From: a virus
Lineage: Duplodnaviria; Caudoviricetes
DNA length: 59,436 nucleotides
Reading direction: 5' to 3' (one strand)
Virus record (IMG/VR): IMGVR_UViG_3300020161_000132
Location: 1-59,436 of that record
Shown here piece after piece: positions 25,401 through 52,816 of this stretch. The translations under genes and the position numbers were made by a program. Position 1 is the stretch's first letter. The number at the start of each line of letters is the position of its first letter. The notes beneath the pieces were generated by a model. It was not told the origin of the DNA and did not search any database. It worked only from the letters and a program-made list of their open reading frames with translations.

Positions 25401-28400
25401 AAAGCCAAGGCCAAAGCTATTGCAGATATCTCTCTGTACGAAGAGCAGATTGACCCAGAGTTGGTGATCAAACGGGCTGAAAAACGTGCTGCAGACACCG
25501 CCGCAGCAAAAGCTGCCGAAGATGCACGGATTGCCGCAGAAGAAGAAATGGAAGCTAACTTCTTCCGCAGGTTGCAGGAGATCGGCTTCAACCTGAAGCC
25601 CCGTATGTCTGACATTGCTAACCTGCTTGGGCAGCGTTTGGCTTCAGTTACGCAGAACCTACTGACTAACGGCAACCTGCGTACCGCCCTGTACAGCATC
25701 GCCGAAACCTCTTCGGAACCGCGCCTAGCCAAGCTGGCTATGAAGATGCGGGGGTTAGTCAAAGAGACTAAGGTGCGGATGGTAGACACTCTCTCCAGCC
25801 CTGACGGGCGCACCATGGCTGCGGCTTACGATCCGGCTACGGACACTATCTTGTTTAACCGCAGTGCCCCCGACTCCATGACTAACGTCACGGTGCTGCA
25901 CGAGGTGGCTCACGCCATCACTCATAAGGCGCTAAACAATCCCAGCCTACCTATCACACAGCAACTTACTAAGTTGTTTGAAGACGCTCAGAAGGCTATT
26001 GGGCCCGACACTATCGGCATGAACAACATCCATGAGTTCGTAGCGGAAGCGTTCACGAACAAGATGTTCCGCGATATGCTGCAAGCATCCTACCCGAACG
26101 GCGGTAAGTTCTCGGCTTGGCAACGGTTCAAGAATGCGGTGGGTAACTTCATCCGCCGTATCTTTGGGGCTCCTGCTAACGTGCTGGGCTCTCCGATGGA
26201 CGATCTGGATATGCACCTTGACCAACTGTTGGACACTTCGTCTGACGTTGTTGGCCCGCGCCCTGATCCTTCTCAGGGGCTCCTCTACCGTGCATCTAAT
26301 GACCCGAAAGAACTGACAGGCGTCATGGCGCGTATGTTCCGCGAGGAGCAGAAGTTTGGTGAACCCACCAAAGCTTTCCGTGACAACTGGGCTAACCGTG
26401 CCAAGGAACTGTACACAAACTCCAAGGGCCTGTTGTCTAAGGGCGTACTCGGCTTCAGTTCATTGCTGCAGTTGTCGGATGTGGCTACAGTTGCAGGGAT
26501 CAAGAACGCCCCCGACCTATATGATGCCGTGGCCAAGCTGGACGCTTCTACGATTGCCTCTGATCGCGAAGTTCAAGCAGCCTTGATACGTATGCAGGAG
26601 TGGGCCAAAAAGTTCCCAGAAAAGCGCTCGCTCTTGAACAAGATCGTAGCCTTCTCGACTATCAATCAAGTGGACCCCGAAAAGACTCGCGATGTCTACA
26701 CGCAGTACTGGCTCAAGTACGACCCGACCGGGAAGTTTGAAGATGGTATTAAGTACACAGGCTTTAAGACTGCAGCGGAGCGCGATGCTAAGCTGAAGGA
26801 GTTGCGGGACAAGTACGGCAAGGATAAAGCCAAATCCGCTGGTAATGCCAATATGGATAAGGCTGCTTTGCATGACGAGATGCAAGCAAGCTGGAAGGCT
26901 CTCGGGCCAGAAGGCCGCGCTATCTACAACCTGATGCGGATGACTTATCGTAAGCAGTTCATGGCTATGCGGGACGCTGTTGGTGGTAAAATCGACTTTG
27001 CGCTCGGAGCAAACTCTACGCTGGCAAACTCCGTCAAGAGCAACATCTACGAACGGTTCTTTGATTTCCGGTCGCTCGAACCCTACTTCCCGCTCGTCCG
27101 TAAGGGCGAGTTCTGGATGCAATACACTGTGCGTGACCCCGTAACCGGGGAAGATGAAGTGGTGAAGGAAGCCTTCGAGACTCGCGCAGAGCGGGATCGT
27201 GTGCGGTCTCTCCTGAAATCGGAAGTCCCGCAGGTCGCCCTAGACGCAAACGGCAACCCAGAAGTTCTTATGTATGAGAACAGCGGTCTAGAGCGCAGCC
27301 GTATCGGTGCGCCAGAGACTAAGTTTGTACGCGATGTGCTTAGTGCGCTTGTCGCAAACAAGGTAAGCGAAAAGGCTCAAAATGAAATCTCAGAGCTCTT
27401 CATCGACGCTTTGCCAGAAACAAGTTTTGCACGTGCTATCAAAGGCCGTAGCGGCGTGCGCGGGTTTGAATCTGACGCATTAGAAGCTTTCCGTCTTAAA
27501 GCCTTCACTCTTGGCCGTCAGGCCGCACGGTATCCGTTCATGCAGAAGGTGCAGGAAGAACGCGACAAGATCGCCGCACAGGGTACAGGGTCGGCCACTA
27601 ATGATCCTGTGCGTATGGCGTTGATCAAAGAACTTGTCATGCGTGCCGATACCGCTATGCACCCGCCGCAGGGCGCTTGGCAGGAAGTAGCCAAGGCAGC
27701 TAACCAGTTTGCCTTCACCTACACTCTCGGCCTGAACATCTCGTCTGCACTCGTCAACCTATCGGCAGTGCCGATTGTGATGGTCCCATATCTGTCTGGT
27801 AAGTATGGGTTGGCTAACACCACCCGCGCTACCCGTGCGGCTTACAAGCTGTTCTTGAACAGCGGGTTCAATACAACCCTCACTACGGCTACGAACGACG
27901 TGGTCAACGTGAAAGCTAGCCCATCTATCGACAACTACTTTGAGTTGAAGGACGTAAATGGCAAAATGGAGTACGTGCTGCGCACGGACTTGAACCTGTC
28001 TGACGCGCAGAAAAAACAAATGCAGGATATGCTGCCGCTGGTTAAGCTGGCTGCAGCGCAGGGACTCTTAAGCCGTTCCCTTACCTACGACACTCTCGGC
28101 GTAGAAAACTTCGGCCAAAATAAAACTATGTTGGATAAGCTGAGTATGCTGCAGGGGCTTCCATTCCACATGGTTGAACGGTCAAACCGTCAGGTCAGCT
28201 TGATGGCCTCTTACCAGATGGAACTTGATCGCCTGCGTAAGAACCCGACCGCAGCAGAGAAGTCTATGACTGACGCACAGAAGCAGGAACAGGCGGCGGA
28301 GAAGGCTGCGTACATGACTGCGGAGATGCACGGTACTCACACGCTATCTACTGCACCGCGCTACGCGCAGAGCGGTCTCGGGCGCATTGCGATGATGTTT

Positions 28401-29372
28401 AAAAGCTACGGCCTGAACATCGCCTATATGCAGTTTAAAATGCTGAAGCAGGGCTGCGAAAACTTGTTCCCCGGAAACGATGCAGAGGCACGGGCGCTGC
28501 GCAACACCGCCTTCAAGCAGCTTCTGGGGCTGCAACTCTCCACGGCTCTTATTGCAGGTGTGTCGGGTGTCCCGCTCTACGGCCTGTACCGCATGGTCGC
28601 CAATATGTTCCTTGGCGATGACGAAGAAGATGCCGATATGCTGACCCGTAAGGCTCTGGGGGAATGGGCATTCCGCGGCCCGCTAACAGAGGCACTGGGG
28701 ATCGACATCTCGTCGCGTACTGGTCTAAACGACCTGCTGTTCCGCGCTAACCCATATGCAAAGAACCAGTCAAATGCAGACTTCATCGCTGCGCTGATTG
28801 GAGGCCCTGCATGGTCTACAGGTAATCAGTTCTTGAGCGGCCTTAACGAGATGAAGCGGGCGGCGCTTGGTCAGGATGGAGACTTCCAACGCGGTCTGGA
28901 GAATATGCTGCCTCCGCTGCCGCGTAACGTCTTACAGTCTATTCGGTTTGAGGCTGAAGGGGCCCGTACTCGGCGTGGAGATGTGGTATTTAACGAGTTT
29001 TCGCTGGGTCAACTGCTGTGGAAAGTTACAGGCTTTAAACCCGCGGAACTCGCGCAGCGTGAAGAAATCACTCGCGGCGCTGCCCGTATGGATAAGGCTG
29101 TGGCGCAGGAGAAAACGCTGCTCTTGAACCGCCTCAATCTGGCAATGTCTCAGGGCGACCGCGGCGAGGAGCTTGAAGCTCGGAAGGACATCCAAGAGTA
29201 TAACGCAAAGGTTCGTGCAAAGTACCCCAATATGCAGATCACCCCAGAGACTATTAAGTCTTCAGGTACATCGTTCGAGCGTGTTTCGGCGCGTACCCAC
29301 AACGGCGTGACGTTCAACCCCGCTACGGAATCTTACTTTACCACTCTGCTCAGCGCCTACGGCGCAGACTAA
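22431..29372 (+). CDS. Large polyvalent ejection protein (~2313 aa) with GNAT-like and zincin metallopeptidase motifs
   Basis: ELRGNGLGTQMY acetyl-CoA-binding-like motif; VLHEVAH plus downstream HEFVAE; YFPLVRKG; last gene of the late block. Confidence 0.8.
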   Translation: MGKFQAPGRMSGRTYNFNIRGDLPTEVERGRIAQHIADSETAFAQQYQETMGQPLAAPEDDGTAIGRGFELGKAGAYSRLGSAAEYLGSGLGIDALRDYGKGMRQSGDTESFLETLRQPAPTELKDVKGLGSALTYLGEGVGQSAPEMFAPLAATAVGTMLGGPVAGVGAGAATAFPTFFGGNVQRQEAEVAAGRKSEVDVASAVTSAIGQSALNAIGDKLLLGGFLKPGQKWLTRTALGTVEGATTEIPTEITQQILERKQAGLPLDSDEAINEYINAGVLGGVLGGGVRGTTAMFQGQAAEDDTPPPPTEETQLELPLEYRPQLQPGQEEGDLFSIAPPKPREPQTEEEKYAEWKAESDAAKAKVAKAKADADAAQAAADAAKGTPDAPAAAKAAKQKKIVASQTEKQANAVDKKKPAEPSVVVAPPVEVQQELFPETPAVETPAVETPALEFSYGKERDKTTAGEARQVIATGNNGTVGAVEGTILKNADGTPSSKIQIYNSSLADELRGNGLGTQMYQEFISKAASEGLSVVSDTSVTPPAARVYAALGKLGYGVKQAENTVAEPDGRIKTQDGSPVFEIVSTPNEVQNVQAVNPEAVGASTEDAGLSTETGGSVPAAAGPAQGAEESVNGGVGEPADVTDGLGEPTSEQPAALSKKVADVADKIRNTYGMELTPAQLQELEGYFAPEPEGPKTDWAAYARKAPETAEEAGKTKLVDLTPRQINDFAQSLGSTDLSGFLNKLLTTPTAPTVSMTETKIPGYTEIRELQLVLAERQAIANDTAQEALEIAWKNSVPEEFIDDFETWQPDAEMQRKLPDITTADDKGKILELVQRTTKQLVGEANKPARNAQLYFSRFRRPIDAIQYMAELIRMQAPQYKAQEIEGVKPEASEKAFNQGHGMTTAQNALDWVMANLDPSTQAQVALLVSKELALAPAAAGRVSASTRRMAQFDEGREAYQGEVDTQVEKESVEAAQAKRELQAAISEAKAKAKAIADISLYEEQIDPELVIKRAEKRAADTAAAKAAEDARIAAEEEMEANFFRRLQEIGFNLKPRMSDIANLLGQRLASVTQNLLTNGNLRTALYSIAETSSEPRLAKLAMKMRGLVKETKVRMVDTLSSPDGRTMAAAYDPATDTILFNRSAPDSMTNVTVLHEVAHAITHKALNNPSLPITQQLTKLFEDAQKAIGPDTIGMNNIHEFVAEAFTNKMFRDMLQASYPNGGKFSAWQRFKNAVGNFIRRIFGAPANVLGSPMDDLDMHLDQLLDTSSDVVGPRPDPSQGLLYRASNDPKELTGVMARMFREEQKFGEPTKAFRDNWANRAKELYTNSKGLLSKGVLGFSSLLQLSDVATVAGIKNAPDLYDAVAKLDASTIASDREVQAALIRMQEWAKKFPEKRSLLNKIVAFSTINQVDPEKTRDVYTQYWLKYDPTGKFEDGIKYTGFKTAAERDAKLKELRDKYGKDKAKSAGNANMDKAALHDEMQASWKALGPEGRAIYNLMRMTYRKQFMAMRDAVGGKIDFALGANSTLANSVKSNIYERFFDFRSLEPYFPLVRKGEFWMQYTVRDPVTGEDEVVKEAFETRAERDRVRSLLKSEVPQVALDANGNPEVLMYENSGLERSRIGAPETKFVRDVLSALVANKVSEKAQNEISELFIDALPETSFARAIKGRSGVRGFESDALEAFRLKAFTLGRQAARYPFMQKVQEERDKIAAQGTGSATNDPVRMALIKELVMRADTAMHPPQGAWQEVAKAANQFAFTYTLGLNISSALVNLSAVPIVMVPYLSGKYGLANTTRATRAAYKLFLNSGFNTTLTTATNDVVNVKASPSIDNYFELKDVNGKMEYVLRTDLNLSDAQKKQMQDMLPLVKLAAAQGLLSRSLTYDTLGVENFGQNKTMLDKLSMLQGLPFHMVERSNRQVSLMASYQMELDRLRKNPTAAEKSMTDAQKQEQAAEKAAYMTAEMHGTHTLSTAPRYAQSGLGRIAMMFKSYGLNIAYMQFKMLKQGCENLFPGNDAEARALRNTAFKQLLGLQLSTALIAGVSGVPLYGLYRMVANMFLGDDEEDADMLTRKALGEWAFRGPLTEALGIDISSRTGLNDLLFRANPYAKNQSNADFIAALIGGPAWSTGNQFLSGLNEMKRAALGQDGDFQRGLENMLPPLPRNVLQSIRFEAEGARTRRGDVVFNEFSLGQLLWKVTGFKPAELAQREEITRGAARMDKAVAQEKTLLLNRLNLAMSQGDRGEELEARKDIQEYNAKVRAKYPNMQITPETIKSSGTSFERVSARTHNGVTFNPATESYFTTLLSAYGAD

Positions 29373-29724: not shown

Positions 29725-32476
29725 CAGCGGGCGGTAGGCTCATGTGAGTGCCTTTGCCCAGACGAACCTTAACCTTCTGTGCCCCCATCTTGTTTTTGAG
29801 TTCTTCGGTAAAGGAACTGTAGTTGATCTGCTGCTCAGTGCACCATTCCCGCAACGGTTTCGGCACAAGGAACAACTTCTGCAGGTCTGTCTCGTACCGT
29901 GCCACAAAGTTAAAGCGTGGGCGGGCTTCCGGCACAATGATACTATCCAGCCCATTGCCGTGCTTGCTGCGCAGGTCTTCTGTGCTCTTGATCTGCAGCA
30001 CTTGGTCGATGTGCTCCAGCACGTAGGAGTTCAAAATATCCGGCGCAGAGGCGGACATATCAGTCATCGCGCTGTTGTTTGACTTCAACAGATCATTCAC
30101 GAGGAACTTAAACATACCCTTGGGGTCATAGTTCAGAAGGCCGATCTTGTTGCAGATTAGCAGGGCTGTGAGGATGGCGGCAGCGCCCGCGGACCAGAAA
30201 CGATTAGCAGCGACGAGGTTTGCGGCACCGTCAATCTTCTCCTGCATCTTCTCGTAGAGACCACGCACTTCTTCACGATGCTCAATGACATACTGAGCAA
30301 ACACTGGACCCGCATGGCCGTAGGTATTCATAATCTTTTTAGCTAGCGCATCAGTCACGGGCTTGCTGATGTCTTTGTGCGGTTTCACACTGTGTTCAAG
30401 AATACGCATGGCCTCGGCGTTTGGGTCAGCCTTGATTGCACGTATCTTCTCAATGAGCGAGGCGTTCGCGGAGGTAACGCAAATAAGCTTCCAAGGCGCT
30501 CCGCGATGCCGTTCTGTGTTAGACCCAGAACTCATACGGGCCCGCTGCCGCCCACCGGACACTTGGTAAAGCAAATCCGAAAGTTCTTTCGGCGAAGCGT
30601 TGGTAAGTTCGTCGATAAGCAACGGCAGGTGCTGCCAGATCTCACCACGGCTCATCCTAGCATTCTGCGTATCGTTTTCCTGCAGGGTATACGCATCGGG
30701 GTTCCCCCAGACGGACGCCGCCGAAAACATTGCGGTACTCTTGCCAAGCCCTGATACGCCCATGAGGTGAATTGTCAGACAGTGCACCGCAGAGAACGGC
30801 ATAAGGATAGAGCCAAACCCTGACAAGAGCACCGCCTGATGGATCTCCATTCCGGGGCGGTTGTAGAATTCCATAAGCGTTACCCAATCAGCCAGCGTCC
30901 CGCGCTGCGTAAACACGTGGAAGTGTTCTGCGGTTGAGGATGATGGCGGATTGTAGTCCAGCCCTGTAGCGGTGATAGAAGTATCCCCGACAATAAACGC
31001 AGTCATGTCTTCGTCAGTCCAACCGAACTGCCGCCGTGCTTTGATAGCTTCGATGTTTGCTTGCAATTCATGTATCCACTGTGTTGTGTAAATCATAAGC
31101 GCTTCTAGGTCTTTACCCCACACAGTGATGCCCTGCTGAGATAGGTACTTCCTGAAGTCTTCCCGTGAGGTCACGGCAGTCAGGGGCACAGTAAACTCGC
31201 GGGGCACATCACGGGGAAGATGCAGCTTCATAGCCACAACCTCGCCAAGGTCGGGGTCATTCAGGCGGTGCGTAACGTACAGATCATTATGGTAGATGCA
31301 CCGTTCGACAATCTCGCCTTCATCATCGGTAGCGCGGATGTACACGCCGCCCTTGGCCCCACGGAAGTAAGGAGCAGGGTACTTAGGGACAACGTGTATC
31401 TTCTCACCAGCCTTAGTCCGCACGACTAACTGATTGTCTTTCTCTTCCGCTTCAACCACGTGCTGGCCTAGCGTGATGGGGGATTTGATCTTACCGAAAT
31501 GCGGGCAACCTTCGCAGCCGCCCGGATTGTATTCGTCGAAGCGAGTGCAAAGGTACGGCCCCTTGATGCGGTCCATCTTCTCTTCGGTTTCGACAGGGTC
31601 ATACTCAGGATGCCCAGAGGATATCTTATGCGCCGCCTTACCCCCATCGCTGCAGAACTTGGCAATCGACAACCCTGCCCGCCACATGGGCTCAGGAAGT
31701 TCAGCGCGGTTCTGGAAGATATAGGCAAGCTGAGCGCAGCCTTTACCCGCTGCGGTCTTAGCCATAATTGTCTTGAACACACTCTCGCGGTTGGCAAGTA
31801 GGGCGCTCATAACGGCATCGGTCTCACGGGGGGCATAGGCGCGGGGCGTAAACACGGGGGTATCAACGCCCGCCAAAATCCCCTCTATCTCACTTACTGA
31901 TACACTGTTTGCACTATCGGTCAGAAAATCCACGGGGAGTGCGGGGTCAGCCTTGTGGTTATGGGTGCTAGGGACACGCAATATGCGGGCACCATCGGCG
32001 GTCACAACAGGGTCGGCTTTGAGGTTTTGGGTAACGCAAGCCTGTTTAAGCTTAAGCGCCAGCTTATACCACTCGGTGTATACTAGCGGCGTAGTTAACA
32101 TCCAGTAAACGTGTACGCCACGCCCTGAGTTTATCATCACGGGCTTGGGCATCTTGGTAGCTTTGCAGAAGTCCCGCAAAGCCGAAATCGCTGCGGCCTG
32201 TGACGGATAGTCTTTCCCCGGACCACAGTCGAGGTCGAGGTACAGCGAATGCAGGGTGTCGATATTATCTACCTTGCGGGAGACAGCTTCCTTGAACGTA
32301 GCCAAGGCAAAATAGGCATCGTAACCCTCGGCGTCGAAGTTCGCCGCTGCGTCGATAATATCGCGCTTAGAAGTGTAGAACTTCTGTGTCTTCTTGCCAT
32401 CGCTAAGACGTGATGCAAAGACGCAGTAAAATCCTGTGTTCCCCAGAGCGCGTTCTAGAAATTCTAGTGTTTCCAT
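29666..32476 (-). CDS. Primase-helicase (AEP/RepB-like primase, DUF927-like region, P-loop ATPase)
   Basis: Start reassigned to METLEF; LYLDLDC, SGRGVHVYW, RILRVP; Cys cluster GPYLC...CEGCPH; Walker A GVSGLGKS; LLIDELT. Confidence 0.88.
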   Translation of the reverse strand: METLEFLERALGNTGFYCVFASRLSDGKKTQKFYTSKRDIIDAAANFDAEGYDAYFALATFKEAVSRKVDNIDTLHSLYLDLDCGPGKDYPSQAAAISALRDFCKATKMPKPVMINSGRGVHVYWMLTTPLVYTEWYKLALKLKQACVTQNLKADPVVTADGARILRVPSTHNHKADPALPVDFLTDSANSVSVSEIEGILAGVDTPVFTPRAYAPRETDAVMSALLANRESVFKTIMAKTAAGKGCAQLAYIFQNRAELPEPMWRAGLSIAKFCSDGGKAAHKISSGHPEYDPVETEEKMDRIKGPYLCTRFDEYNPGGCEGCPHFGKIKSPITLGQHVVEAEEKDNQLVVRTKAGEKIHVVPKYPAPYFRGAKGGVYIRATDDEGEIVERCIYHNDLYVTHRLNDPDLGEVVAMKLHLPRDVPREFTVPLTAVTSREDFRKYLSQQGITVWGKDLEALMIYTTQWIHELQANIEAIKARRQFGWTDEDMTAFIVGDTSITATGLDYNPPSSSTAEHFHVFTQRGTLADWVTLMEFYNRPGMEIHQAVLLSGFGSILMPFSAVHCLTIHLMGVSGLGKSTAMFSAASVWGNPDAYTLQENDTQNARMSRGEIWQHLPLLIDELTNASPKELSDLLYQVSGGRQRARMSSGSNTERHRGAPWKLICVTSANASLIEKIRAIKADPNAEAMRILEHSVKPHKDISKPVTDALAKKIMNTYGHAGPVFAQYVIEHREEVRGLYEKMQEKIDGAANLVAANRFWSAGAAAILTALLICNKIGLLNYDPKGMFKFLVNDLLKSNNSAMTDMSASAPDILNSYVLEHIDQVLQIKSTEDLRSKHGNGLDSIIVPEARPRFNFVARYETDLQKLFLVPKPLREWCTEQQINYSSFTEELKNKMGAQKVKVRLGKGTHMSLPPADAIVVDFAIKDHVDGAEIT

Positions 32477-33495: not shown

Positions 33496-33696
33496 TTAGA
33501 CCGTTTGGTCGGGGGTTGTGCTCAGTGCTTCATCAATCATCGGGATGCGGAAACGATAGGTGTTCCCAACTTTGATGTAAGTAGTCTTGGGGATGTCCCC
33601 ATTGCGTATCCACGCACGGATGGTCGAGATGGATACGGTAAAATGCTTCGCCACTTCTTCAATCGTGGAGTAGGGGCTCTTTTCTTGGTCTGTCAT
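33496..33696 (-). CDS. Excisionase-family helix-turn-helix protein
   Basis: TIEEVAKHFTVSISTIRAWIRNGDIP...KVGNTYRF. Confidence 0.85.
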   Translation of the reverse strand: MTDQEKSPYSTIEEVAKHFTVSISTIRAWIRNGDIPKTTYIKVGNTYRFRIPMIDEALSTTPDQTV

Positions 33697-34082: not shown

Positions 34083-34130
34083 GCGGTGTTCTCCAGTGGT
34101 GATTTGTTAGTTATAGTGACTAACTTTGTG

Positions 34131-37014: not shown

Positions 37015-38834
37015 TCACAATCTCCATAATTCTTGCCTACACCTGCCTCGCAGTTCACGGGCAGACCCTTCGCCCAATCTGGAACCCAGCGCATCGACTC
37101 CTCAACCCAAGCCTTAGCTTCGGTCACCTCATCGTCGGGAACACAGCAGACAATCGAGTCATGTACAGTTAGCACGGCGCGGTGTTTCTTAGCAATACGC
37201 AACATCTGGTCCCCGATGATACACCTTGCTATCGCCTGACACACGTTTTCTATGACCTTGCCTCCGTAGATGCGACTCGGACCCTTGCGTGTTTGGTAAG
37301 TATACTCGGTGCCGTCAGCGTTCTGGTGGCCGCGTAATCCATCGTAACGAAGCAGCAAACCAGATGGCAGGATAACGCCGGGGCCAGTAGTATCGACACT
37401 GAGAACACCCGCACGACCGAACTCTTGGACCTCGCGGTTGGCTAAGGCGCGGAGCATATACCCTGCACGTTTCCACAGGTTGGTGATCTGGTCGTTCTCT
37501 TCGCGGTAGATAGTGATGATGCGCTTGGCTTCACCTTCTGTCACTTCCATCCCCTGCGTCAGCAGAGCAGCTTGAAACTTAGGCCCACCCATGCCGTAGC
37601 CAGCGCCTAGAATAGTTGTCTTGCCTACGAAGCGTTGCTCCTTCGTTACGTCAGCCTCTTCGACGCCGTAAATCTTCGCAGCCATCTTCTTATACACGTC
37701 TTTGCCTAGGGCGAAGGCTTCGACGAGATCGTCCTGCTCGGCCAACCATGCAAGCACCCGCGCTTCGATCTGCGCGGAGTCGGATTCGATAATTGTCATG
37801 CCCTCTGGTGCAATGATGGCCCGCTTAAGCACCTTCGCGTTAGGCCCACGGCTCGGCAGGTTCTGCAGGTTGATCTTATCGTCACCACCCCAGCGACCCG
37901 TATGGGCAGCGTAATACCGTACAGGGACGGGCAGAGCGCCCCGCTTGGAGATGTCTATGAAGCGTTGGGTGCGTGTCTCCTCAAGCGTGGACTTAGTGCC
38001 CAGCCGTGCAGCTATCGCAGCCTGTACGCGGAAGTCTTCATGCTCGGCTAGCGCCTTGAACTCCTCATCGTTCTTAGCCATGGCGTAGGTAAGTTTACCC
38101 GTTGTCGGGCTGATCTTCATGGGAACTTCTGCGCCGTATGACCGCAGCACCTCGGCCAGCTTGGCGTTGCTCATAAGGTCTTCCTTGCTCACGCCGGATG
38201 CGACGAGCAGGTCTTCTTTCATAAGCTTAGTTTTCTGCAGGTGCATCTCCAGCAGGTCGCCGTCTAGTTCTAGGATTGGGTCGATGAACATACGCAGCGT
38301 GTGGTCAATCAGCTTTAGTTCCTTCGTGGGGAACTTCTTTATCATTTGGTTGAAGATAGTGTAGGTCAGGTCCACATCGTTGCGGCAATACTCGCCGTAC
38401 CGATCCAATTCTTCCTTAGTGAAGTCGACTAACCGCTTCCCCAGTGCGTTGATGACCTCGTTGCCCTTCTCCCCTACCCCGTAGGATTCGGCTAAGGCTT
38501 TCAGGCTGGCGCTCTTCTCCACACCATGAATAGCCCGTGCCATGCACAGGGTATCGAACCAAGCCTTGGGCTTCACGCCGTAGCGCCACGACAGGATAGC
38601 ACCATCAAACATAGTGTTGTGGCACAGGATAGCGGACTTGGACCAATCAATACGCGACAGAGTATGCGCTACGCGCTTCTCTCCTGCCAACCAGTAGGTC
38701 GGCCCATCGTTCTTCTTGATGCCCAGCCCGATAGTCTCGAACAGGGGGCTCCGCACGTATTCTTCCGTGGTGATCTTGGACAGGGAAAAGTCTTTGTCGT
38801 AATAGGTTTCGAAGTCTAGCGTGTAGACATCCAT
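37011..38834 (-). CDS. polA: DNA polymerase family A with 3'-5' exonuclease
   Basis: Start reassigned to MDVYTLDFET; HNTMFD; HTGRWGG; NLQN; DSAQIEAR; KTTILGAGYG; TVHDS. Confidence 0.93.
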   Translation of the reverse strand: MDVYTLDFETYYDKDFSLSKITTEEYVRSPLFETIGLGIKKNDGPTYWLAGEKRVAHTLSRIDWSKSAILCHNTMFDGAILSWRYGVKPKAWFDTLCMARAIHGVEKSASLKALAESYGVGEKGNEVINALGKRLVDFTKEELDRYGEYCRNDVDLTYTIFNQMIKKFPTKELKLIDHTLRMFIDPILELDGDLLEMHLQKTKLMKEDLLVASGVSKEDLMSNAKLAEVLRSYGAEVPMKISPTTGKLTYAMAKNDEEFKALAEHEDFRVQAAIAARLGTKSTLEETRTQRFIDISKRGALPVPVRYYAAHTGRWGGDDKINLQNLPSRGPNAKVLKRAIIAPEGMTIIESDSAQIEARVLAWLAEQDDLVEAFALGKDVYKKMAAKIYGVEEADVTKEQRFVGKTTILGAGYGMGGPKFQAALLTQGMEVTEGEAKRIITIYREENDQITNLWKRAGYMLRALANREVQEFGRAGVLSVDTTGPGVILPSGLLLRYDGLRGHQNADGTEYTYQTRKGPSRIYGGKVIENVCQAIARCIIGDQMLRIAKKHRAVLTVHDSIVCCVPDDEVTEAKAWVEESMRWVPDWAKGLPVNCEAGVGKNYGDCE

Positions 38835-38860
38835 GTTAGTTCTCCAGATTAGTATTGTCG

Positions 38861-39064: not shown

Positions 39065-39086
39065 GTTAGTCCTCCAGACTAAGTTA

Positions 39087-39467
39087 TTATTTAGCGCGGT
39101 TGTCGTTCAGCTTCCCGTGCTTTTCGGCATCCAAGAGGATGTTGCAGCAAGCCATAACATGAGCAAGGTGCGGTAGCCCGCTCTCTGGGTCTAAGGTCTC
39201 CCCATTAAACCATGCCATCAGGTGGCGGAGCGCCGCATCGTAATACACAGTAGAGGACACCTGATGTTCGCGCCAGTTAAACCGCCCGTACTTGCTTGCC
39301 CCGTTGCTATGCACCTGACCAAGAAGTTGAATACCAATTGTCGGTGTGTCACTCAGTTTTGGCTTTGCCTCACCAAAGGCGGTCTTCGGGTTGTCGTCGG
39401 GGTACTCACTCATCTTTGGCGCGTCCGCCGATCCACCCATAACCATCATCTCACTCCACTTTGCCAT
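39087..39467 (-). CDS. dATP/dGTP diphosphohydrolase-domain protein (DUF5664-like)
   Basis: NPK...G..KP, GASKYGRFNWR, YYDAALRHL, GETLDPESGLPHLAH. Confidence 0.85.
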   Translation of the reverse strand: MAKWSEMMVMGGSADAPKMSEYPDDNPKTAFGEAKPKLSDTPTIGIQLLGQVHSNGASKYGRFNWREHQVSSTVYYDAALRHLMAWFNGETLDPESGLPHLAHVMACCNILLDAEKHGKLNDNRAK

Positions 39468-43958: not shown

Positions 43959-44000
43959 TTTAGTTCTCCAGATGTTAGTCTTTGCGACTAAGGGTTGTTG

Positions 44001-45023: not shown

Positions 45024-46217
45024 TTAACGCATATCATACTGGTTGATGTGGACTGTCTGCCCACAGGAAGGATTGGCCGACTTGTTATCCAAGACGCACC
45101 ACAGGACGGGGCAGGACCACGTGCCCCACGTGCCGCCAAGATAGCCATCGGTGAGGACCACCACGGCTTGCGGGTTGATGTTATGCTCGGTCATGTATGC
45201 AGGGACACATACTACGTCAGTGCCGCCGCCACCCTTGGGCTTAGTCGTAGCGACTAAGTTTGCAATCTCGTCGCCCTCATACCGCTCGGCATGGCAGACC
45301 TTGGTATCCCAATAGATGATGTGCACCACATCGGGCTTGACCATATCGCACAGCGATTTGACTTCTGACATGAAGGTATCAAGAACCCCCGGCGCGTAGG
45401 TTGAGCCTGACGTATCAATCGCCAATACCAGTTCCCCGATCCGCTCGGTGATACCGCTCGGCATATAGATACCTGCGCCGACGAACCTGCGGTTGGGTTT
45501 GGTCCACGTGGAATAGTCTTTGCCAGCACAGTTGGCTGTGACAAACTCTCGCAACGCCTCGCGCCAATCGACCTGCGGTTCAAGCAGTTCACCAAAGATA
45601 CGATCACCACCGCTGCCTGTCTTGCCCGCAGTCAACGCGCCCTGACGCAGAGCCTCGTCGATATCCTGAGCAAGTTCGCGCTTCTCCTCGGCGGTCATCT
45701 CCTCGGCTTCTTCCCAGCCATGCTCGTCAAAGCCTTCGCCTTGACCCTTGCCCTTACCCCCGCCTTCCTCTTGGTCCTTACGCAGCAAGTTGAATACTTG
45801 TGCTGCATCCATGCCACGATACTTGAAGTCGAGCAGCCCCATCTTAGGCATGACCAAGAACTCATCACCCGCATCGGCGTCAACAATCTTACAGTTGATC
45901 ACATAGTCACAGGCCATGTTGGCAAGTTGCGGGTCAATGTCCCACATCCACTTCCACGTAGTCAGATGCTTATACATCTTGTGGTATTGCTCGTGCACAT
46001 CGACAAAGCGCAGGTTGGCATCGGTCAGGTCGGTAAAGAACTTGCGACCAAACACTACGTTGACGCCATCGGTATACGCAGTCGGTGCAGTCTCGGACAC
46101 GCTGCGCTTGCCGATCATAATGATACCCGCAAGCGGGGCCCACTTGGGGCTAGCCATGATAGCCATAGCAGACTTCTGAATACGCTGTTCCAGCGTAAGC
46201 GGTGCAGTCATAAACAT
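45024..46217 (-). CDS. Metallopeptidase-like plus VWA domain protein (DUF2201-like)
   Basis: PTAYTDG, HEQYH, ANMACDYVIN; MIDAS-like IDTSGS, GGGGT, LTDG. Confidence 0.88.
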   Translation of the reverse strand: MFMTAPLTLEQRIQKSAMAIMASPKWAPLAGIIMIGKRSVSETAPTAYTDGVNVVFGRKFFTDLTDANLRFVDVHEQYHKMYKHLTTWKWMWDIDPQLANMACDYVINCKIVDADAGDEFLVMPKMGLLDFKYRGMDAAQVFNLLRKDQEEGGGKGKGQGEGFDEHGWEEAEEMTAEEKRELAQDIDEALRQGALTAGKTGSGGDRIFGELLEPQVDWREALREFVTANCAGKDYSTWTKPNRRFVGAGIYMPSGITERIGELVLAIDTSGSTYAPGVLDTFMSEVKSLCDMVKPDVVHIIYWDTKVCHAERYEGDEIANLVATTKPKGGGGTDVVCVPAYMTEHNINPQAVVVLTDGYLGGTWGTWSCPVLWCVLDNKSANPSCGQTVHINQYDMR

Positions 46218-46262
46218 ATTAGTTCTCCAGAGGTTAGTCGGGGCGACTAAGCGCCCCTGTTG

Positions 46263-47354: not shown

Positions 47355-47420
47355 TGTTAGTCCTCCAGACTAAGTTGTGGTTTTGTTTTTAGTGTAGTCG
47401 TTAGGTGAGAGCTTGTGCTC

Positions 47421-48344
47421 TCACCAATTATCAAGCGAAGGCAGCGAAGCGATAACCTCGTCCACTTTCTTCTTGGTTTCGCGGCGCAGGTAGTCATCTT
47501 CGCGCAGCGCATCGGGCGTGATGCCGTCCATAACTTGTTGCAGCTTGAACCGCACATCGCGCAGGGTCGGGTCGTTGGTGATGTTGTATGTTTCCAAGCG
47601 GTCGATCATGTTGACCACATTCTCCACCAAGCTATCGCGGAAAGTCTTGATGCCACGGCTGTTTGCTTTGTCGCCAGCCACAGGGTCGGCCAGCTTCTCG
47701 GACATACGCAGCAGAGGGTCGAGGGTCTGTGCTACCAGCGTGGCAGCAAGACCGCGTTTCTGATCCTCATAGTAATCGGCGTAGTGTTTGGACAAGACAT
47801 CAACAGTGTCGCGGCCCATGTCCACGCGCCAATCGCCAACCTCGGGCACGGGCACATAGTTAACCACGAACCGAAACTTGCGGGCCAGCACATCGGCGGT
47901 CGGATACTCGTTATCGTTGAACAGGGAACCAAGCGCAGCCTTAGCCTCGGCACGTGCCCACTCGTAAGACAGCAAGAACTCTTTAACAAGTTCGGCAAAC
48001 TTGCCCTGCTTGGCGGTGACATCGGCTTGGTAGTCAAAGAACTTGGCAGTTGGCAGCAAGCGCAGCCCGCTGTTGGACCAAGGCATAGTCATCTCGTGGT
48101 GCGTCCCTGTGCGGACCATCGCAACAAAGTCGCTGATCGCTTTGAGTTCGGGGCAATCACCAAGAAGTTTCTTAGTCACGCTGGCTACGCCACGTTTCGC
48201 GCCGTTGTCGTCGGCCACCTTGGCAGACGCAGCCTTGTCGCGGCGGATGCCCGACCACTGGCTGATGGACAGGTCAACCAGCATAGCTGCGGACGCGATG
48301 GACGGCACGGAAATGCTCGGTGCGTTGAAGTTTAGTGCGTTCAT
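47421..48344 (-). CDS. DUF3150-like protein
   Basis: Start reassigned to MNALNF; LVDLSISQWSG, KKLL, TMPW...GLRLLP, YP...L.RKF. Confidence 0.7.
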   Translation of the reverse strand: MNALNFNAPSISVPSIASAAMLVDLSISQWSGIRRDKAASAKVADDNGAKRGVASVTKKLLGDCPELKAISDFVAMVRTGTHHEMTMPWSNSGLRLLPTAKFFDYQADVTAKQGKFAELVKEFLLSYEWARAEAKAALGSLFNDNEYPTADVLARKFRFVVNYVPVPEVGDWRVDMGRDTVDVLSKHYADYYEDQKRGLAATLVAQTLDPLLRMSEKLADPVAGDKANSRGIKTFRDSLVENVVNMIDRLETYNITNDPTLRDVRFKLQQVMDGITPDALREDDYLRRETKKKVDEVIASLPSLDNW

Positions 48345-48462
48345 TTTAGTTCTCCAGATGTTAGTCGTTGCGACTAAGGGGTTTGCTTCACGATGCTTAA
48401 CCATCGCTTACTACAATACTACACCATTTGATAGCGTAGTTCCACTATTTTGAGCAAAATAG

Positions 48463-48745: not shown

Positions 48746-48949
48746 TTAGTCCTCCAGACTAAGCGCCATCGTGAGCGCACGTGAGTGGTCAAAGTCAAAG
48801 CCGTTAGCAACATCGCACCCGATATCGTAAGCCTGTTCAAGCTTGATGTTGTCCTTGTAGAGCGAAGTGATTTGCTCATTGGTGAGCGGGCATGAGGTGA
48901 ACCCATGCTTAGCGAAGTCGCGTTGCAGCGTAGCAATATACCATTTCAT
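48746..48949 (-). CDS. Hypothetical early protein
   Basis: GGAG RBS; stop codon lies within the palindrome. Confidence 0.7.
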   Translation of the reverse strand: MKWYIATLQRDFAKHGFTSCPLTNEQITSLYKDNIKLEQAYDIGCDVANGFDFDHSRALTMALSLED

Positions 48950-48950
48950 C

Positions 48951-49481
48951 TTAGTTCTCCATTACCCATTGCTTGAATGCAGCGAACTGCTCGGCGGTCA
49001 TGTTGATATCGGCGAAGTGCTCCCCATTCTTGTTAGCCGCGGCTACGTGAAACCCGCCGTCAGCCATCTTCTCGAACTCGGCCACGTTGTCTCCGTTGCC
49101 CCAAGGTGCGGTTTCCTGCACACAAAAATACTTGTTAGTCGGTTGGACTAAGGGGATCGTTGCTGTCTTTCCCCAGCCCATCTGCGGGTTCCCCACTCTA
49201 GCGATTACTTCTTGTATCACTTCAGCTTTTCCTGCGCCCATGCACGGGGCTTTCTCTAATGCTCTCGGCATCTCGAACTGCACGGGCCGCTCGGGGTCGG
49301 GCGTGTATATAAATGCCTCGGCAGCTTGCTGCGCTAGCAGTTCTTTATAGATGCGCTTGGCCTTCTTGCGCTTGGCCTTCTTGGGCTGTGCCCACAGCAT
49401 ATCAAGCAGGGCGCGGTTCATCTCCACATCAAGCGCGTATTCGTCCGCGATCCAGATCGGGTTCTTGTTCTTCTTAGGCAT
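48951..49481 (-). CDS. Hypothetical early protein
   Basis: AAGGAG RBS; 176 aa. Confidence 0.7.
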   Translation of the reverse strand: MPKKNKNPIWIADEYALDVEMNRALLDMLWAQPKKAKRKKAKRIYKELLAQQAAEAFIYTPDPERPVQFEMPRALEKAPCMGAGKAEVIQEVIARVGNPQMGWGKTATIPLVQPTNKYFCVQETAPWGNGDNVAEFEKMADGGFHVAAANKNGEHFADINMTAEQFAAFKQWVMEN

Positions 49482-49505
49482 CTTCTTTCTCCTTAGTCGT
49501 GCCGA

Positions 49506-49715
49506 CTAATCGACAATTTGTTTTGGGTTGATGTTCCGCAGGTATTGCGGGTCGGTGATCAGTGTGTAGCCTTGCTTGTGCCCTGCTGGTGCGATGCACC
49601 ATGTCGTGCGGGCCGCACGGGCTTCCTTGTCGCCACAGGCGAGGCATAGGCGATAACCCAAAGCGAAGCGGCGGGCGGGTATACCCTCGCCACATTCGGC
49701 GCACTCATAGGCCAT
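49506..49715 (-). CDS. TraR/DksA-type C4 zinc-finger protein
   Basis: CAECGEGIPARR.ALG..LCLAC. Confidence 0.75.
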   Translation of the reverse strand: MAYECAECGEGIPARRFALGYRLCLACGDKEARAARTTWCIAPAGHKQGYTLITDPQYLRNINPKQIVD

Positions 49716-49815: not shown

Positions 49816-49903
49816 GGTGGTTCTCCAGTTGGTGTTGTGGGCGGCATTGCCGCAAGTGGTTAGTCGCGGTGACTAAAACCAAACGAATAACTAAACTATA
49901 ACT

Positions 49904-50390
49904 TAAAGCTCAGGATGGGCGGTGTGTCGCACGGGTAGCCCGTGGGGTGATTGGTTCACCATGTGCAACGCCCATCCTATTGGTGTGTGTATGCTTTGCC
50001 GTGGGCTGTTAGCCCCTTCGGATATCGACAGTTTGGCAATGGGCGTGATGGCCCTTTTATCTTTGGTTCCCTTCCGCGAGGCGCGTGTTAACGCGTTACT
50101 GTGTCGCCCCAAGCGGGGGGCTGATAGCGGCATCTACTTTTCTGGGAGAACCTTGCACCTCCCACTTGCGTGGTGTGTCTTTAGTCAACGTAACTAAGGA
50201 CGCGGTTTAGTTCTTTTCTCCATACTCGGTGGACCTACTCTGTCACACAGCGGCTTAGGTTAGCATCGGACCATCTGGCTACGGGGTGCAAAGCCCGCAC
50301 TTCCAGATGCAACTACTCCTGTCGCTCCCCTTGCTTTGATGCTGATCCCACTGGTTCGGGCACACGTGTCGCCAAGGGGCAAGCGGCGTG
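49904..50390 (+). ncRNA. Candidate large structured non-coding RNA (unknown family)
   Basis: At least seven helices; G-U pairs favour the + strand; possible promoter GTGACT-17-TAAACT at 49869-49897. Confidence 0.45.
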
Positions 50391-50403
50391 TTCAGCTATT
50401 CGA

Positions 50404-50416
50404 TTGTCAAAGAGCG
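50404..50416 (-). promoter_or_regulatory. boxA-like antitermination signal
   Basis: CGCTCTTTGACAA on the - strand, close to the rrn/nut boxA consensus GCTCTTTAACA; lies in the early leader. Confidence 0.6.
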
Positions 50417-50489
50417 GTTAGTCAGCGCGACTAACGGGGTCGTCAGGCCCGAAGGCAGGAAGTCAAATTCAATTCTGGGCCGTCTTCGT

Positions 50490-50498
50490 ACCATAGCA
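50490..50498 (-). promoter_or_regulatory. Possible extended -10 early promoter
   Basis: TG-C-TATGGT facing the early operon; -35 element poor. Confidence 0.35.
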
Positions 50499-50628
50499 CA
50501 TTCGGAGGGCGTCCGCCACAAAACTGAGTAAAATAGTTAGTTTTTTAGTAAAATATATCAGGCCGTGGTGAATCTTAGTTAAGCTAACTAAAACGTGGTA
50601 AAGCATGGGAAAAAAGTGAATGTAATGT

Positions 50629-50891
50629 AATGTTCTTAAAGTTCTTTTTAGATACTCTTATAAGCCTTTGTTTTTATTGCAATGTTCCTAATGTTCGTAA
50701 TGTTCGGGGGGTAACGGGGTTTTCGGGATTTATTTTTTTTGGGGTAATGTTCTTGCCGTCCCTGCCCGCTCGTGGGGAAAAAATTTAGGTGGAGAGTCTA
50801 TGGTGGAACATTAGAACATTAGAACATTACTGCAATATCAATGACTTACGAAGAGGCAAAAAAGAACATTACCCACAAAATCAGGAACATT
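50629..50891. repeat. AT-rich inverted array of AATGTTC/GAACATT heptamers (candidate replication origin)
   Basis: AATGTTC at 50629, 50681, 50690, 50699, 50746; GAACATT at 50806, 50814, 50822, 50864, 50885. Confidence 0.7.
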
Positions 50892-50986
50892 GCATGGGTG
50901 TTGTATTCTGACAATCGCACCGTTACATAGTGTGAATACGCCACCGTGGCGTATTGTGAATACCAACCTTGGAGAGGTGACATATT

Positions 50987-51289
50987 GTGGCTACGCGCCT
51001 TCAGCGCCTACGGGCAGAAGTTATCGAAAAACGTGGGCGTCATTGCTCGTATTGTGGGGCTGGCCCACTCTATAAACGCGCCCTGCATCTTGACCATGTT
51101 ACGCCGCAGAAGTTAGGCGGTAAGACTGAGTTCGCCAACCTGCGTCCCGCCTGTAGCCACTGCAACACTAAGAAAAGTTCTAGGCGTTTATCTGACTACA
51201 TCGTTATTCGTTTGGCTGAGATTGACCGCGAGCGTAGTAAACTTGTTGCCATCGGGACGAAGCTGGGGGTGGTTAGTCACGCAGACTAA
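50987..51289 (+). CDS. HNH endonuclease
   Basis: GAGG RBS, GTG start; CSYCG, LDHVTP...GG, NL..ACSHCN.KK. Confidence 0.9.
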   Translation: MATRLQRLRAEVIEKRGRHCSYCGAGPLYKRALHLDHVTPQKLGGKTEFANLRPACSHCNTKKSSRRLSDYIVIRLAEIDRERSKLVAIGTKLGVVSHAD

Positions 51290-51292
51290 CGT

Positions 51293-51503
51293 GCTAGATG
51301 CGGGAGCGGGAACTGGCATTGGCGGGGTTAGTCTTGGCGACTAACGGGCTAGCTGCTGCGCTGCACAACACCGAAACCTCTTGGCTAGATGCGGGAGCGA
51401 GAACTGGCCTCGGTGCTGCGTGGCGTTAGTCTGGCTGACTAAGGTGCAGGGCGTGGCAATCAAGGGGTCAACCTCTTGGCTAGATGCGGGAGCGAGAACT
51501 GGC
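51293..51503 (+). repeat. Three direct repeats interleaved with palindromes
   Basis: AACCTCTTGGCTAGATGCGGGAGCGAGAACTGGC at 51375-51408 and 51470-51503; 25-bp partial copy at 51293-51317. Confidence 0.9.
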
Positions 51504-51531
51504 GTCAGCGGCCCCGCCAAACGCAGGGCAT

Positions 51532-51562
51532 AAAAAAACCCCGCAACCTTTCGGCTGCGGGG
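51532..51562 (-). terminator. Rho-independent terminator
   Basis: CCCCGCAGCC-GAAA-GGTTGCGGGG-TTTTTTT on the - strand. Confidence 0.9.
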
Positions 51563-51569
51563 TGAGGTG

Positions 51570-51662
51570 TCAAAGGCCAAAGCCGAAACCGAGCACAGCG
51601 ATCACAAGCACAGCGATCACAAACAAGGCCAGCGTCACGATATCTTCAAACCATTCGTTCAT
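51570..51662 (-). CDS. 30-aa single-pass membrane peptide
   Basis: CTGGAG RBS; MNEWFEDIVTLALFVIAVLVIAVLGFGFGL*; followed directly by a terminator. Confidence 0.7.
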   Translation of the reverse strand: MNEWFEDIVTLALFVIAVLVIAVLGFGFGL

Positions 51663-51715
51663 TTTGTTTCTCCAGTGTTGGGGGAAGAAGGGGCGCTTTC
51701 GCGCCCCGTCCAGTG

Positions 51716-52381
51716 TCACTTGGCCTTGGTCTTGTCGCCAGTCTTGATCTGGCCTTCTTTGCCAGTGAAGGCGAAGGCCGCAAGATGCAGCGCCTTCTTG
51801 AAGGCATCGTCGTCATTGCACTTGAACGCTGCCTTTTGCGTCTTGTCGTACATGGTCTGCAGCGCCTTCAACATGATTTCTTCCGGCGTGCTTTCAGTCT
51901 TGGTGACTGTTGCCTTGTCGGCAGGTGCTTCAAGGTCTGCAAGGTAAGTTGCATACCCTTTGCTCAAACCCGACAAGACCGTGCCGATTTGGCTGCGCCA
52001 GTTGGTGACTGTTGCGCCTTTGGGCTGCGCCTTTGGTCTGCCCAAGATCAGATGCGCATTGCCAAGTGCATCGTCGTTATATTCAGCGACAAGCTCGGGT
52101 GTCAGATATTGAATGTTCGTGCCTTTGCCGATTGGCGTGGCATATGCCGCAAGATTGTGCAGGAAGGCGTTGATAGTTTCGTGCAGGTTGTCACCTGCTT
52201 TCGCCTTCTTGAAGTGCTTGAGCTCAATCCCCTGCGCCTTCCAATCGCCAAAGATTGCGGCGCGTGCTTCCTTGCGGGAAACCTCAATCTTTGCCATTGC
52301 GTTGACGGCTTTCGCTTCGCTGGCAACGAAACCCAAGACGGCGCGGATACGATCCGCGGTAACAAGATATTGTTCGATCAT
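51716..52381 (-). CDS. Hypothetical protein (Ala/Lys-rich), possibly immediate-early
   Basis: 221 aa; separate short transcription unit divergent from TerS. Confidence 0.75.
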   Translation of the reverse strand: MIEQYLVTADRIRAVLGFVASEAKAVNAMAKIEVSRKEARAAIFGDWKAQGIELKHFKKAKAGDNLHETINAFLHNLAAYATPIGKGTNIQYLTPELVAEYNDDALGNAHLILGRPKAQPKGATVTNWRSQIGTVLSGLSKGYATYLADLEAPADKATVTKTESTPEEIMLKALQTMYDKTQKAAFKCNDDDAFKKALHLAAFAFTGKEGQIKTGDKTKAK

Positions 52382-52816
52382 AGTAAATCCCTTTCTAGGA
52401 TTGAGGTTGAAGTCTTACTGTTTTGCTTCAACCTCTACTTTATGCCATGCCCAAAAAACCAAAACAATGGATGTTTTGTCATTAGTCACTAAGACTAACC
52501 ACCAAACGGCATGAAACGACACAAAACGGGCCTAGGCTGGACCCCACCTAGGGGCCACCCCCCTTGGGGGCAGGCATGGGCATCGCGCTTACAGTATACT
52601 ATTCCGCACAAACATTTCTAAAAAGAACGAAAACAGAACACCTACTCCGGGACAAAAATATCCCGGAAAAAATACCCCCCACCCCCCAAGCATTTTCGGC
52701 CCGGCCAAGCCCCACCCCCTGCAACCATGAAAACGTAGGAAAACACCCCATTTGCAAACTAGGGGGGTATAGTTGTATAGTTAACCAACATCTACCTTCG
52801 CACGGAGTGCGCACCA

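Follow-up and report, generated by a model that had tools for sequence, protein, structure and literature searches.

Dispersed palindromes of lineage-specific sequence in the early and middle genes of uncultured podophages

Introduction

What could read a short palindrome that a single phage genome carries in 17 exact copies, and to what effect? The question is raised by IMG/VR record IMGVR_UViG_3300020161_000132, an uncultured freshwater podophage whose whole sequence of 59,436 bases (estimated completeness 99%) is analysed here and referred to as the window. An initial annotation, made from the sequence alone, had described the palindrome TTAGTC-N5-GACTAA as a dispersed binding site for a dimeric protein and had compared it with the stoperators of mycobacteriophages. 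The sites exist, they are symmetric, sequence-specific selection acts on their arms only, and they co-vary between phage lineages. The results favour a symmetric phage protein that reads the sites as duplex DNA over a role as RNA hairpins.

Results

An exact palindrome with a fixed spacer

Exact matching recovers 17 perfect copies of TTAGTC-N5-GACTAA, at exactly the 17 coordinates of the initial annotation, whereas 100 dinucleotide-preserving shuffles yield 0.01 copies on average and never more than 1. The spacer length is fixed, as had been claimed: among lengths of 0–14 only 5 is found (17 copies). The everted arrangement of the arms occurs once in the window, and 17 of its 23 TTAGTC hexamers belong to full palindromes. 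Allowing up to two mismatches yields 24 matches (1.24 expected), and relaxing only the inner pair, to TTAGTY-N5-RACTAA, yields 20 copies (17 perfect and 3 variant) where none is expected. Four of the five near copies listed earlier hold up, those at 34107, 38416 and 50181 with one mismatch each and that at 50575 with two; the fifth, at 38836, has more than two mismatches and is really a ribosome-binding cassette, TCTGGAGAACTAA-C-ATG, at the DNA polymerase start, with the right arm only. The statement that the spacer is not self-complementary applies to 13 of the 17 copies, the other four having spacers that start with G and end with C, so that the palindrome is longer there. A comparison with contigs from four DNA runs, for which 40 of 684 differences were listed, all at 43.9–47.0 kb, contains one insert with a further TTAGTT..AACTAA variant.

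Sixteen of the 17 perfect copies lie within 31.4–52.5 kb, and both ends of the record are free of the palindrome, as first noted (no copy in 1–25754 or 52499–59436). Structural and lysis genes occupy the plus strand from 1 to 29.4 kb, the last of them encoding a 2315-residue virion protein. The early/middle unit runs leftward on the minus strand from about 49.8 kb down to 29.5 kb and comprises, in order, small early genes, a DUF3150-like/AAA/DUF2201-VWA trio, a resolvase-like nuclease, a family A DNA polymerase, an exonuclease, an SNF2 helicase, an excisionase-type HTH_17 protein and a primase-helicase. A mostly non-coding control region follows at 49.9–52.8 kb, and a terS-like gene, terminase and portal genes read rightward from 52.8 kb. 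The earlier description of the copies as mostly just upstream of early genes fits 8 of the 17, seven of which end 1–16 nt and one 44 nt 5′ of a minus-strand start codon; five others are in the control region (four non-coding, one over the last codons and stop of an HNH gene) and four are intragenic.

Relatives carry palindromes of their own at the same positions

The terminase of the window is 43–46% identical to those of phage 023Pt_psg01, HTVC023P-type pelagiphages and DSL-LC04, and its best cultured DNA polymerase match, which is not from a mycobacteriophage, is 36.5% identical; the close relatives are therefore all uncultured. They were drawn from 584 IMG/VR stretches with a related polymerase, of which the best 80 (57–71% identity) were kept. 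A lack of equivalent dispersed palindromes in related phages had been named beforehand as a refuting outcome; related phages do have them, each of different sequence, which speaks for the finding. The motif of the window itself occurs in none of the 80 loci, and 12 of the 43 related loci of at least 9 kb carry a palindrome of their own in at least five copies. These palindromes are 14–18 bp long, mostly 17, and stand at the same genome positions as in the window. Six whole or long records (G001–G005 and G008) carry GTAGTG-N3-CACTAC (nine copies), GTTAGGC-N3-GCCTAAC (five), TTAACA-N2-TGTTAA (seven, or 11 with the looser TTAAC-N4-GTTAA), GTTAGC-N6-GCTAAC (13), GTTATAC-N3-GTATAAC (11) and TCTAGTCG-N-CGACTAGA (four), respectively, with an expected count of at most 0.004 for each. 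Additional versions are found in four loci (L008, L042, L050 and L069). At least nine distinct motifs occur among phages with polymerases 57–71% identical.

In every genome the copies are restricted to the control region and the early/middle unit, often at stop/Shine-Dalgarno junctions, and each genome has one copy in the divergent region ahead of the pre-early gene and one just 5′ of the DUF3150-like gene. No such palindrome is found in the cultured, more distant phage HTVC027P (terminase 43% identical), so that its published transcriptome is uninformative here. In literature searches on HTVC023P and on conserved intergenic phage palindromes, and in term look-ups in pelagiphage papers, the feature is not described for these phages.

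Selection acts on the arms

The 40.7-kb record G007 is collinear with the window (mean nucleotide identity of 80.6% over 25.2 kb of aligned pieces) and has the same motif in 7 perfect copies and 9 with a variant inner pair. Of the 15 window copies that fall in aligned sequence, 12 are matched by a G007 copy at the corresponding place; the other three sit among differing small genes, where G007 has copies at its own junctions. Over the 12 pairs, identical positions amount to 138/144 in the arms (96%), 41/60 in the spacers (68%) and 339/480 in the 20-nt flanks (71%), values for pairs picked for a copy in both genomes, which inflates arm identity and leaves positional retention and spacer freedom unaffected. 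The subset in the non-coding control region gives 79/84, 18/35 and 195/280, respectively. A second collinear pair, G005 and L034 (about 80–82% nucleotide identity), shows the sites exchanged rather than retained: GTTATAC-NNN-GTATAAC in the former faces GTTATTAC-N-GTAATAAC in the latter at 3 of 3 orthologous junctions. That all these sites switched together calls for a single reader with changed specificity.

The copies inside genes bear on the level at which selection acts. Four perfect copies lie deep in genes and all read TTA GTC NNN NNG ACT AAN, as the initial annotation had it: 25755..25771 in the giant virion-protein gene (L-V-K-E-T-K), 31413..31429 in the primase-helicase gene (L-V-V-R-T-K), 45241..45257 in the DUF2201/VWA gene (L-V-A-T-T-K) and 49135..49151 in p176 (L-V-Q-P-T-N). 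Their common frame is forced, because the other two contain TAG or TAA. A one-mismatch copy at 38416..38432 in the DNA polymerase gene reads L-V-D-F-T-K, and the G007 copy there is further decayed. In real genes the peptide L-V-x-x-T-[KN] occurs five times, and each time its coding sequence is the motif or differs from it by one mismatch, where codon usage predicts about 0.1%; TTA is rare, making up 4.9% of leucine codons. Selection thus operates at the nucleotide level, and the intragenic motif is built through rare-codon choice. DUF2201 orthologues carry L-[VIL]-x-[ST]-T-K at the position of copy 45241, which indicates that this site arose by codon choice where the protein permitted it. In G004, 6 of 13 copies lie in long open frames, including those of the DNA polymerase (two copies) and the helicase.

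Anatomy of the junctions and the control region

The usual order at junctions, on the sense (minus) strand, is stop codon, palindrome, Shine-Dalgarno sequence and ATG, with the upstream stop codon frequently taken from the arms (TAG in the left, TAA in the right). In three of the 17 copies the spacer is TGGAG, which places the Shine-Dalgarno sequence inside the palindrome and the ATG 1–2 nt later. These are 39066..39082 (ATG of p67b 1 nt after), 47357..47373 (ATG of the AAA ATPase 2 nt after) and 48746..48762, which spans the end of p67, its last codons and TAA stop, together with the Shine-Dalgarno sequence of the HTH_23-like p93 (ATG 1 nt after). Three further copies are followed by CATCTGGAGAACTAA(A/T)ATG, namely 43975..43991, with CATCTGGAGAACTAAA-ATG of p304, 46234..46250, with CCTCTGGAGAACTAAT-ATG of DUF2201, and 48361..48377, with CATCTGGAGAACTAAA-ATG of the DUF3150-like gene. 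The copy at 49493..49509 overlaps the TAG stop of a TraR-like gene, 11 nt 5′ of the p176 ATG; that at 49860..49876 precedes p36, the first early open reading frame (ORF), by 44 nt; and the variant TTAGTT..GACTAA at 34107..34123 is intergenic, 24 nt 5′ of the p129 start.

Relatives show comparable junctions. The Shine-Dalgarno sequence (AGGA) lies in the spacer of 3 of 11 copies in G003, with the ATG 3–4 nt after, and 5 of 11 copies in G005 stand 11–12 nt 5′ of an ATG and abut AAGGAGA. The window also has a start cassette, TCTGGAG[AG]ACTAA followed by 1–2 nt and ATG, in eight copies, all on the sense strand, at 38.8–49 kb and before early/middle genes only. The cassette GGAGAACTAA, with the right arm only, stands on the minus strand at 38836..38845, 1 nt before the DNA polymerase ATG, and at 48951..48960, ahead of the p67 ATG.

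Within the control region, the copy at 50418..50434 is non-coding and identical in G007 at 17 of 17 nt. The copy at 51273..51289 covers the 3′ end of the plus-strand HNH gene, final codons and stop included, those at 51328..51344 and 51426..51442 each lie between two GCCAGTT-box repeats, and that at 52482..52498 occupies the divergent non-coding gap between the pre-early gene (minus strand) and the terS-like late operon (plus strand), where the aligned place in G007 reads TTAGTT..AACTAA. Two variants fall in the same region: TTAGTC..AACTAA at 50181..50197, in a 1.1-kb non-coding control stretch, and TTAGTT..AACTAA at 50575..50591, in which both inner positions are altered and symmetry is retained. 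The palindromes are interleaved with three direct repeats of 91–95 bp (51284..51506, minus strand), each with a GCCAGTT box. On the same strand, the pre-early gene p221 (51716..52381) is followed by a 30-residue membrane peptide and a strong terminator (51538–51563).

Symmetry beyond the arms

In lineages whose palindromes have 7-bp arms and a 3-bp spacer, the outer spacer bases are mostly complementary (4/4 copies in G008, 3/3 in L034, 7/7 in L008, 4/5 in G002 and 7/11 in G005), so that the symmetry extends as 8+1+8 to one central base and such a site is unable to loop. Where the spacer is asymmetric, both of its orientations are found along a single direction of transcription (AAA five times and TTT twice in G001; GCC twice and GGC twice in G008), as they are for CTG/CAG and AAT/ATT in other lineages. 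Inner-pair variants read on the sense strand comprise three T·G and six C·A, with no G·U bias. Half-sites vary independently, double variants numbering 3 (1.6 expected) and single variants 9 (11.9 expected). Predicted RNA hairpins range from −0.8 to −7.8 kcal/mol, the weakest value being that of G003.

Candidate binding proteins

Neither RNA polymerase nor integrase, ParB or Cro/CI-type repressor is found in 54 ORFs searched with PHROGs or in 92 window ORF translations searched with Pfam, profile searches that a novel repressor could escape. A ParB-family protein would be expected of ParB/KorB-type dispersed centromere or operator sites, and the Pfam scans give no hit to that family. The excisionase-type HTH_17 protein (33496–33696) is rejected as the binder: its recognition helix is near-invariant across lineages with different motifs and identical in G005 and L034. 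The case for the HTH_23-like p93 is weakened, a homologue being present in G007 and none in the 8.5 kb upstream of the L069 polymerase gene, although L069 shares the TAGTC core. Positional orthologues of p221 are present in 6 of 7 relatives: in G001–G003 and G005, in G007 by tblastn and in G008 by ORF listing; the G004 contig ends at this position and holds only a 74-residue ORF. A metagenome scan with p221 returned one 2.7-kb locus, which was not used further. Widespread and highly divergent, the pre-early p221 is the best remaining candidate by position only, and an unproven one. For p307 the ESM Atlas yielded a DUF3150 lead and no other, for p304 it yielded none, and NCBIfam contributed nothing further.

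Other features of the control region and neighbouring genes

The GCCAGTT boxes lie on the minus strand at 51497–51503, 51402–51408 and 51311–51317, each reading GCCAGTT(C)TCGCTCCCGCATCTAGC. A (GAT)GCCAGTT box also stands 3′ of the pre-early terminator in G001, G002, G004, G005, G007, G008 and L069, whose palindromes differ. Possible identities of this box include a conserved early promoter and an origin element; a sigma-54 reading was discarded by eye, the −12 element being absent. Sigma-70-like promoters at 38–53 kb number 9 against 11.0 expected, none adjoining a copy, a weak test given that the host consensus may differ. The stretch 49877–50986 (1.1 kb) holds no convincing ORF and is about 76% identical to G007. 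Within it, 50600–50900 has about 11 non-coding AATGTTC/GAACATT heptamers in both orientations, which also occur near the control regions of G001, G002, G004, G008, L008 and L069; they resemble iterons and may mark the origin. The HNH endonuclease gene (50987–51289, plus strand) lies on the opposite strand within the early control region and looks like a mobile insertion. The sole Rfam match in the window is tRNA-Met, with none in 49.7–52.7 kb at E values up to 1.

The trio at 45024–48344 (minus strand), encoding a DUF3150-like protein, an AAA ATPase and a DUF2201 metallopeptidase-like/VWA protein, is present in 7 of 7 relatives searched (G001–G005, G007 and G008), in a different order in G003. 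The early gene at 49509–49715 (minus strand) codes for a small protein with a C4 zinc finger, which matches TraR/DksA weakly (E = 0.02), has homologues in G001, G003, G004 and L008 and may act as a modulator of host RNA polymerase. The product of 39087–39467 (minus strand) is labelled ‘endolysin; inhibits RNA polymerase' by PHROGs, whereas Pfam assigns PF18909 (E = 9.6e-27), the dATP/dGTP diphosphohydrolase N-terminal domain. The virion protein (22425–29372, plus strand) contains a GNAT domain (residues 472–555), a zincin-like HEVAH motif near residue 1160 and LPD39 (residues 1379–1528), and its C-terminal 800 residues are related to phage proteins of 2900–3400 residues that lack an assigned function. 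The DNA polymerase matches of G005 (L099) and L034 span about 2.67 kb (889 residues) against 1.83 kb, which suggests an inserted element such as an intein. The locus L084 has a tandem 36-bp unit at 1618–2450 (AACGAGTCA ... AGTCACCCA), the first half of which occurs 16 times, each with GANTC. The record itself starts and ends within one DUF6321-containing gene (58580–59434 and 2–220), and G007 and G006 have about 4 kb between the sequences that match its two ends.

Discussion

The palindromes would be double-stranded DNA sites bound by a symmetric dimer, or a higher symmetric oligomer, of a phage-encoded protein, with sites and protein specificity evolving together so that each lineage would come to have its own site of about 17 bp. 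They would mark the control region and the early-to-middle leftward unit, which host RNA polymerase presumably transcribes, since no phage polymerase is found and the weak TraR/DksA-like gene fits. Their most likely effect would be timed control of this unit, whether by shut-off, by an elongation roadblock or by keeping it in step with the divergent promoters of the pre-early and late genes. Taken as a whole, co-evolving duplex sites combined with timed control command about even confidence. Binding by a phage protein, and to duplex DNA, is what we infer from symmetry, spacer freedom and joint switching. Timed repression or a roadblock is favoured because the sites are confined to a unit turned down at the late stage, are densest at its head and include one in the divergent pre-early/late gap. 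Lambdoid operators are likewise 17-bp dyads; lambdoid and Mu C/Mor sites cluster at few promoters.

Several points weigh against this proposal. The regulatory outcome is deduced from placement alone, and no binder is identified among the window proteins; the p221 model (pLDDT 72) matched no known fold in Foldseek or VIA-align searches, its best Z of 5.1 being at noise level for helical models. The outer TTAG/CTAA is common to many lineages at a separation of 7–9 bp, which is awkward for one conserved dimer geometry, and in G001, whose spacers are A/T-rich, the spacer ends are complementary in none of nine copies. The remaining points concern RNA. The sites are tightly linked to translation starts, which is compatible with an RNA-level role too; the copies with a Shine-Dalgarno sequence in the spacer (3/17 in the window, 3/11 in G003) always have their ATG 1–4 nt after; and the hairpin is held in the minimum-energy fold, computed with ±30 nt of context, in 62 of 73 copies.

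The alternative that gains from these RNA observations is a hairpin in early/middle mRNA that, alone or with a phage factor, sets translation, stability or processing at gene junctions, acting as a start-associated signal in which the stop codon of one gene is included and the Shine-Dalgarno sequence of the following one is displayed. It accounts for the seven copies placed 1–16 nt before a start, for the optimal distance of the three TGGAG spacers and for the same design in G003 and G005, as it does for the stop codons provided by the arms, the eight sense-strand start cassettes and the variation of loop and stem lengths around a common TTAG/CTAA base. Still, it is considered unlikely. Stem covariation is absent within every genome, the sense strand has no G·U preference, and spacers are free in sequence and found in both orientations; the 8+1+8 symmetry cannot fold, and the G003 hairpin is worth only −0.8 kcal/mol. 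Selection also maintains copies within essential coding sequence, in which a hairpin that regulates or is cleaved would do harm; others stand in non-coding control DNA ahead of the first early ORFs, and the element is absent from late genes.

Much less probable is that the sites are promoters, or N4-like promoter hairpins, for an unrecognized phage-encoded or virion RNA polymerase starting just 3′ of the 3′ arm. A private sequence of about 17 bp in 5–20 copies before one temporal gene class, and also within genes, is the typical pattern of phage-polymerase promoters; three tandem copies lie past a terminator at the head of the early region, and a giant virion protein is encoded. The hairpin promoters of the N4 virion RNA polymerase are few and have a stem of 5–7 bp and a loop of 3 nt, a geometry that the 7-bp arms and three central bases of several lineages recall. 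No virion polymerase is found in the window, however, nor any polymerase family in any scanned ORF. The giant protein has only GNAT and LPD39 in Pfam besides an HExxH motif, with no PDB sequence match and, by pattern search, no T7-type motif B. A symmetric site would fire bidirectionally, the Shine-Dalgarno sequence inside the site means that the site must be part of translated mRNA, and the TraR/DksA-like early gene (a weak match) suggests the use of host polymerase.

A similarly slim prospect is that the copies mainly mark sites of recombination, or are copy-and-paste cassettes carried along with gene modules, and have no dedicated binder. The PeSL cassettes of T4-type phages are repeats at early-gene junctions that include an early promoter; by the weak sigma-70 test above, no such promoter is joined to the window copies. 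Spread of this kind would suit the three copies embedded in a longer unit of 37–47 nt (palindrome plus CATCTGGAGAACTAA-ATG, 89–91% identity) and the way in which the window and G007 keep copies at their own junctions where their small genes differ, and indels flanked by the Cluster O repeats are described in the report on those phages (PMC4351075). Gene conversion would, however, homogenize spacers and flanks too, and only the arms are kept; copies in conserved genes came about through codon choice and not insertion; and orthologous sites switch together in close relatives. Least probable of all is a host protein that reads the sites, with lineage differences reflecting different hosts: the relatives do come from different waters (freshwater, river and marine runs, with habitat seen for part of them), but at least nine motifs among phages with 57–71% polymerase identity, and a difference between G005 and L034 at about 80% identity, would be site change of a speed rare for host regulators. 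Readings as CtrA, CcrM (GANTC) or type I restriction sites were dropped for mismatched spacing or sequence.

Among described systems, the dyad repeats of Cluster O mycobacteriophages and the SAS/ESAS of Cluster K are the closest analogues known, and both were left without an explanation. Cluster O phages have 34 copies of TGTTCGG-N3-CCGAACA, with invariant 7-bp arms and a free 3-bp spacer in both orientations, located in short intergenic gaps, at 5′ gene ends and in gene interiors, mainly in the non-structural operon, and absent from the host; its authors suspected a dimeric regulator and reached no functional assignment (Cresawn et al. 2015, PMC4351075). The window feature likewise measures about 17 bp, its inverted arms being invariant and its spacer constant in length but variable in sequence; its copies, also in the tens, are intergenic and intragenic and concentrated in the non-structural operon. 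The resemblance is one of analogy and not homology, as Cluster O phages are unrelated actinobacterial siphoviruses and the sequence is unrelated. They also share one motif throughout the cluster, whereas nearly every lineage here has its own, and a Shine-Dalgarno sequence in the spacer is not described in the part of the Cluster O report available to us.

In Cluster K, the SAS is a conserved Shine-Dalgarno cassette 3–7 nt before the ATG, confined to the non-structural half; about half of the SAS are preceded by the 17-bp inverted repeats of ESAS, whose consensus is subcluster-specific, and the authors lean to DNA-binding sites, without an established function (Pope et al. 2011, PMC3203893). 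The start cassette of the window, 1–2 nt before the ATG, resembles SAS in placement and is unrelated in sequence. SAS is asymmetric and the ESAS repeats are imperfect and 4–13 bp apart, whereas the window palindrome is short and exact, may contain the Shine-Dalgarno sequence and is also found far from starts. The interpretation offered by the initial annotation is thus upheld in one half, sites for a symmetric (dimeric) DNA-binding protein being favoured by the tests, and not in its comparison with stoperators. On its other suggestion, that a protein is loaded at the sites to organize or protect the DNA injected first, these results do not bear in either direction. The stoperators of Cluster A are asymmetric 13-mers active in one orientation only, bound by a monomeric immunity repressor of temperate phages (PMC9283540). 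Likenesses exist, in the many copies of a short site in small intergenic gaps along operons and in a motif that diverges between subclusters with its binding protein (PMC9283540, PMC6550527). The window sites are, in contrast, two-fold symmetric in their 6-nt arms in 17 of 17 copies, the spacers of relatives occur in both orientations, and no repressor or integrase family is found in the profile searches.

The new finding is that the palindrome differs from one relative to the next while its genome positions are kept. The clade thereby offers many natural specificity swaps on a conserved gene order, which the actinobacteriophage cases lack, and the reader protein should therefore be discoverable by comparison, as the protein that changes with the sites. 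An extended version of the proposal, which is rather improbable, is that a fast-evolving binder, possibly the pre-early protein, co-evolves with 5–20 symmetric 17-bp sites as a private address code for the whole early-middle programme of this lytic freshwater and marine podophage clade, such that, in a cell infected by two relatives, neither would recognize or silence the genes of the other. If true, this would represent an immunity-like specificity outside lysogeny, with sites that double as stop codon and ribosome-binding junctions. Should the sites act in RNA instead, they would constitute a new type of start-associated signal. If a binder is found, the clade would provide a set of orthogonal protein–operator pairs and would reveal the means by which a lytic phage reliant on host RNA polymerase sets the timing of its early genes or insulates them.

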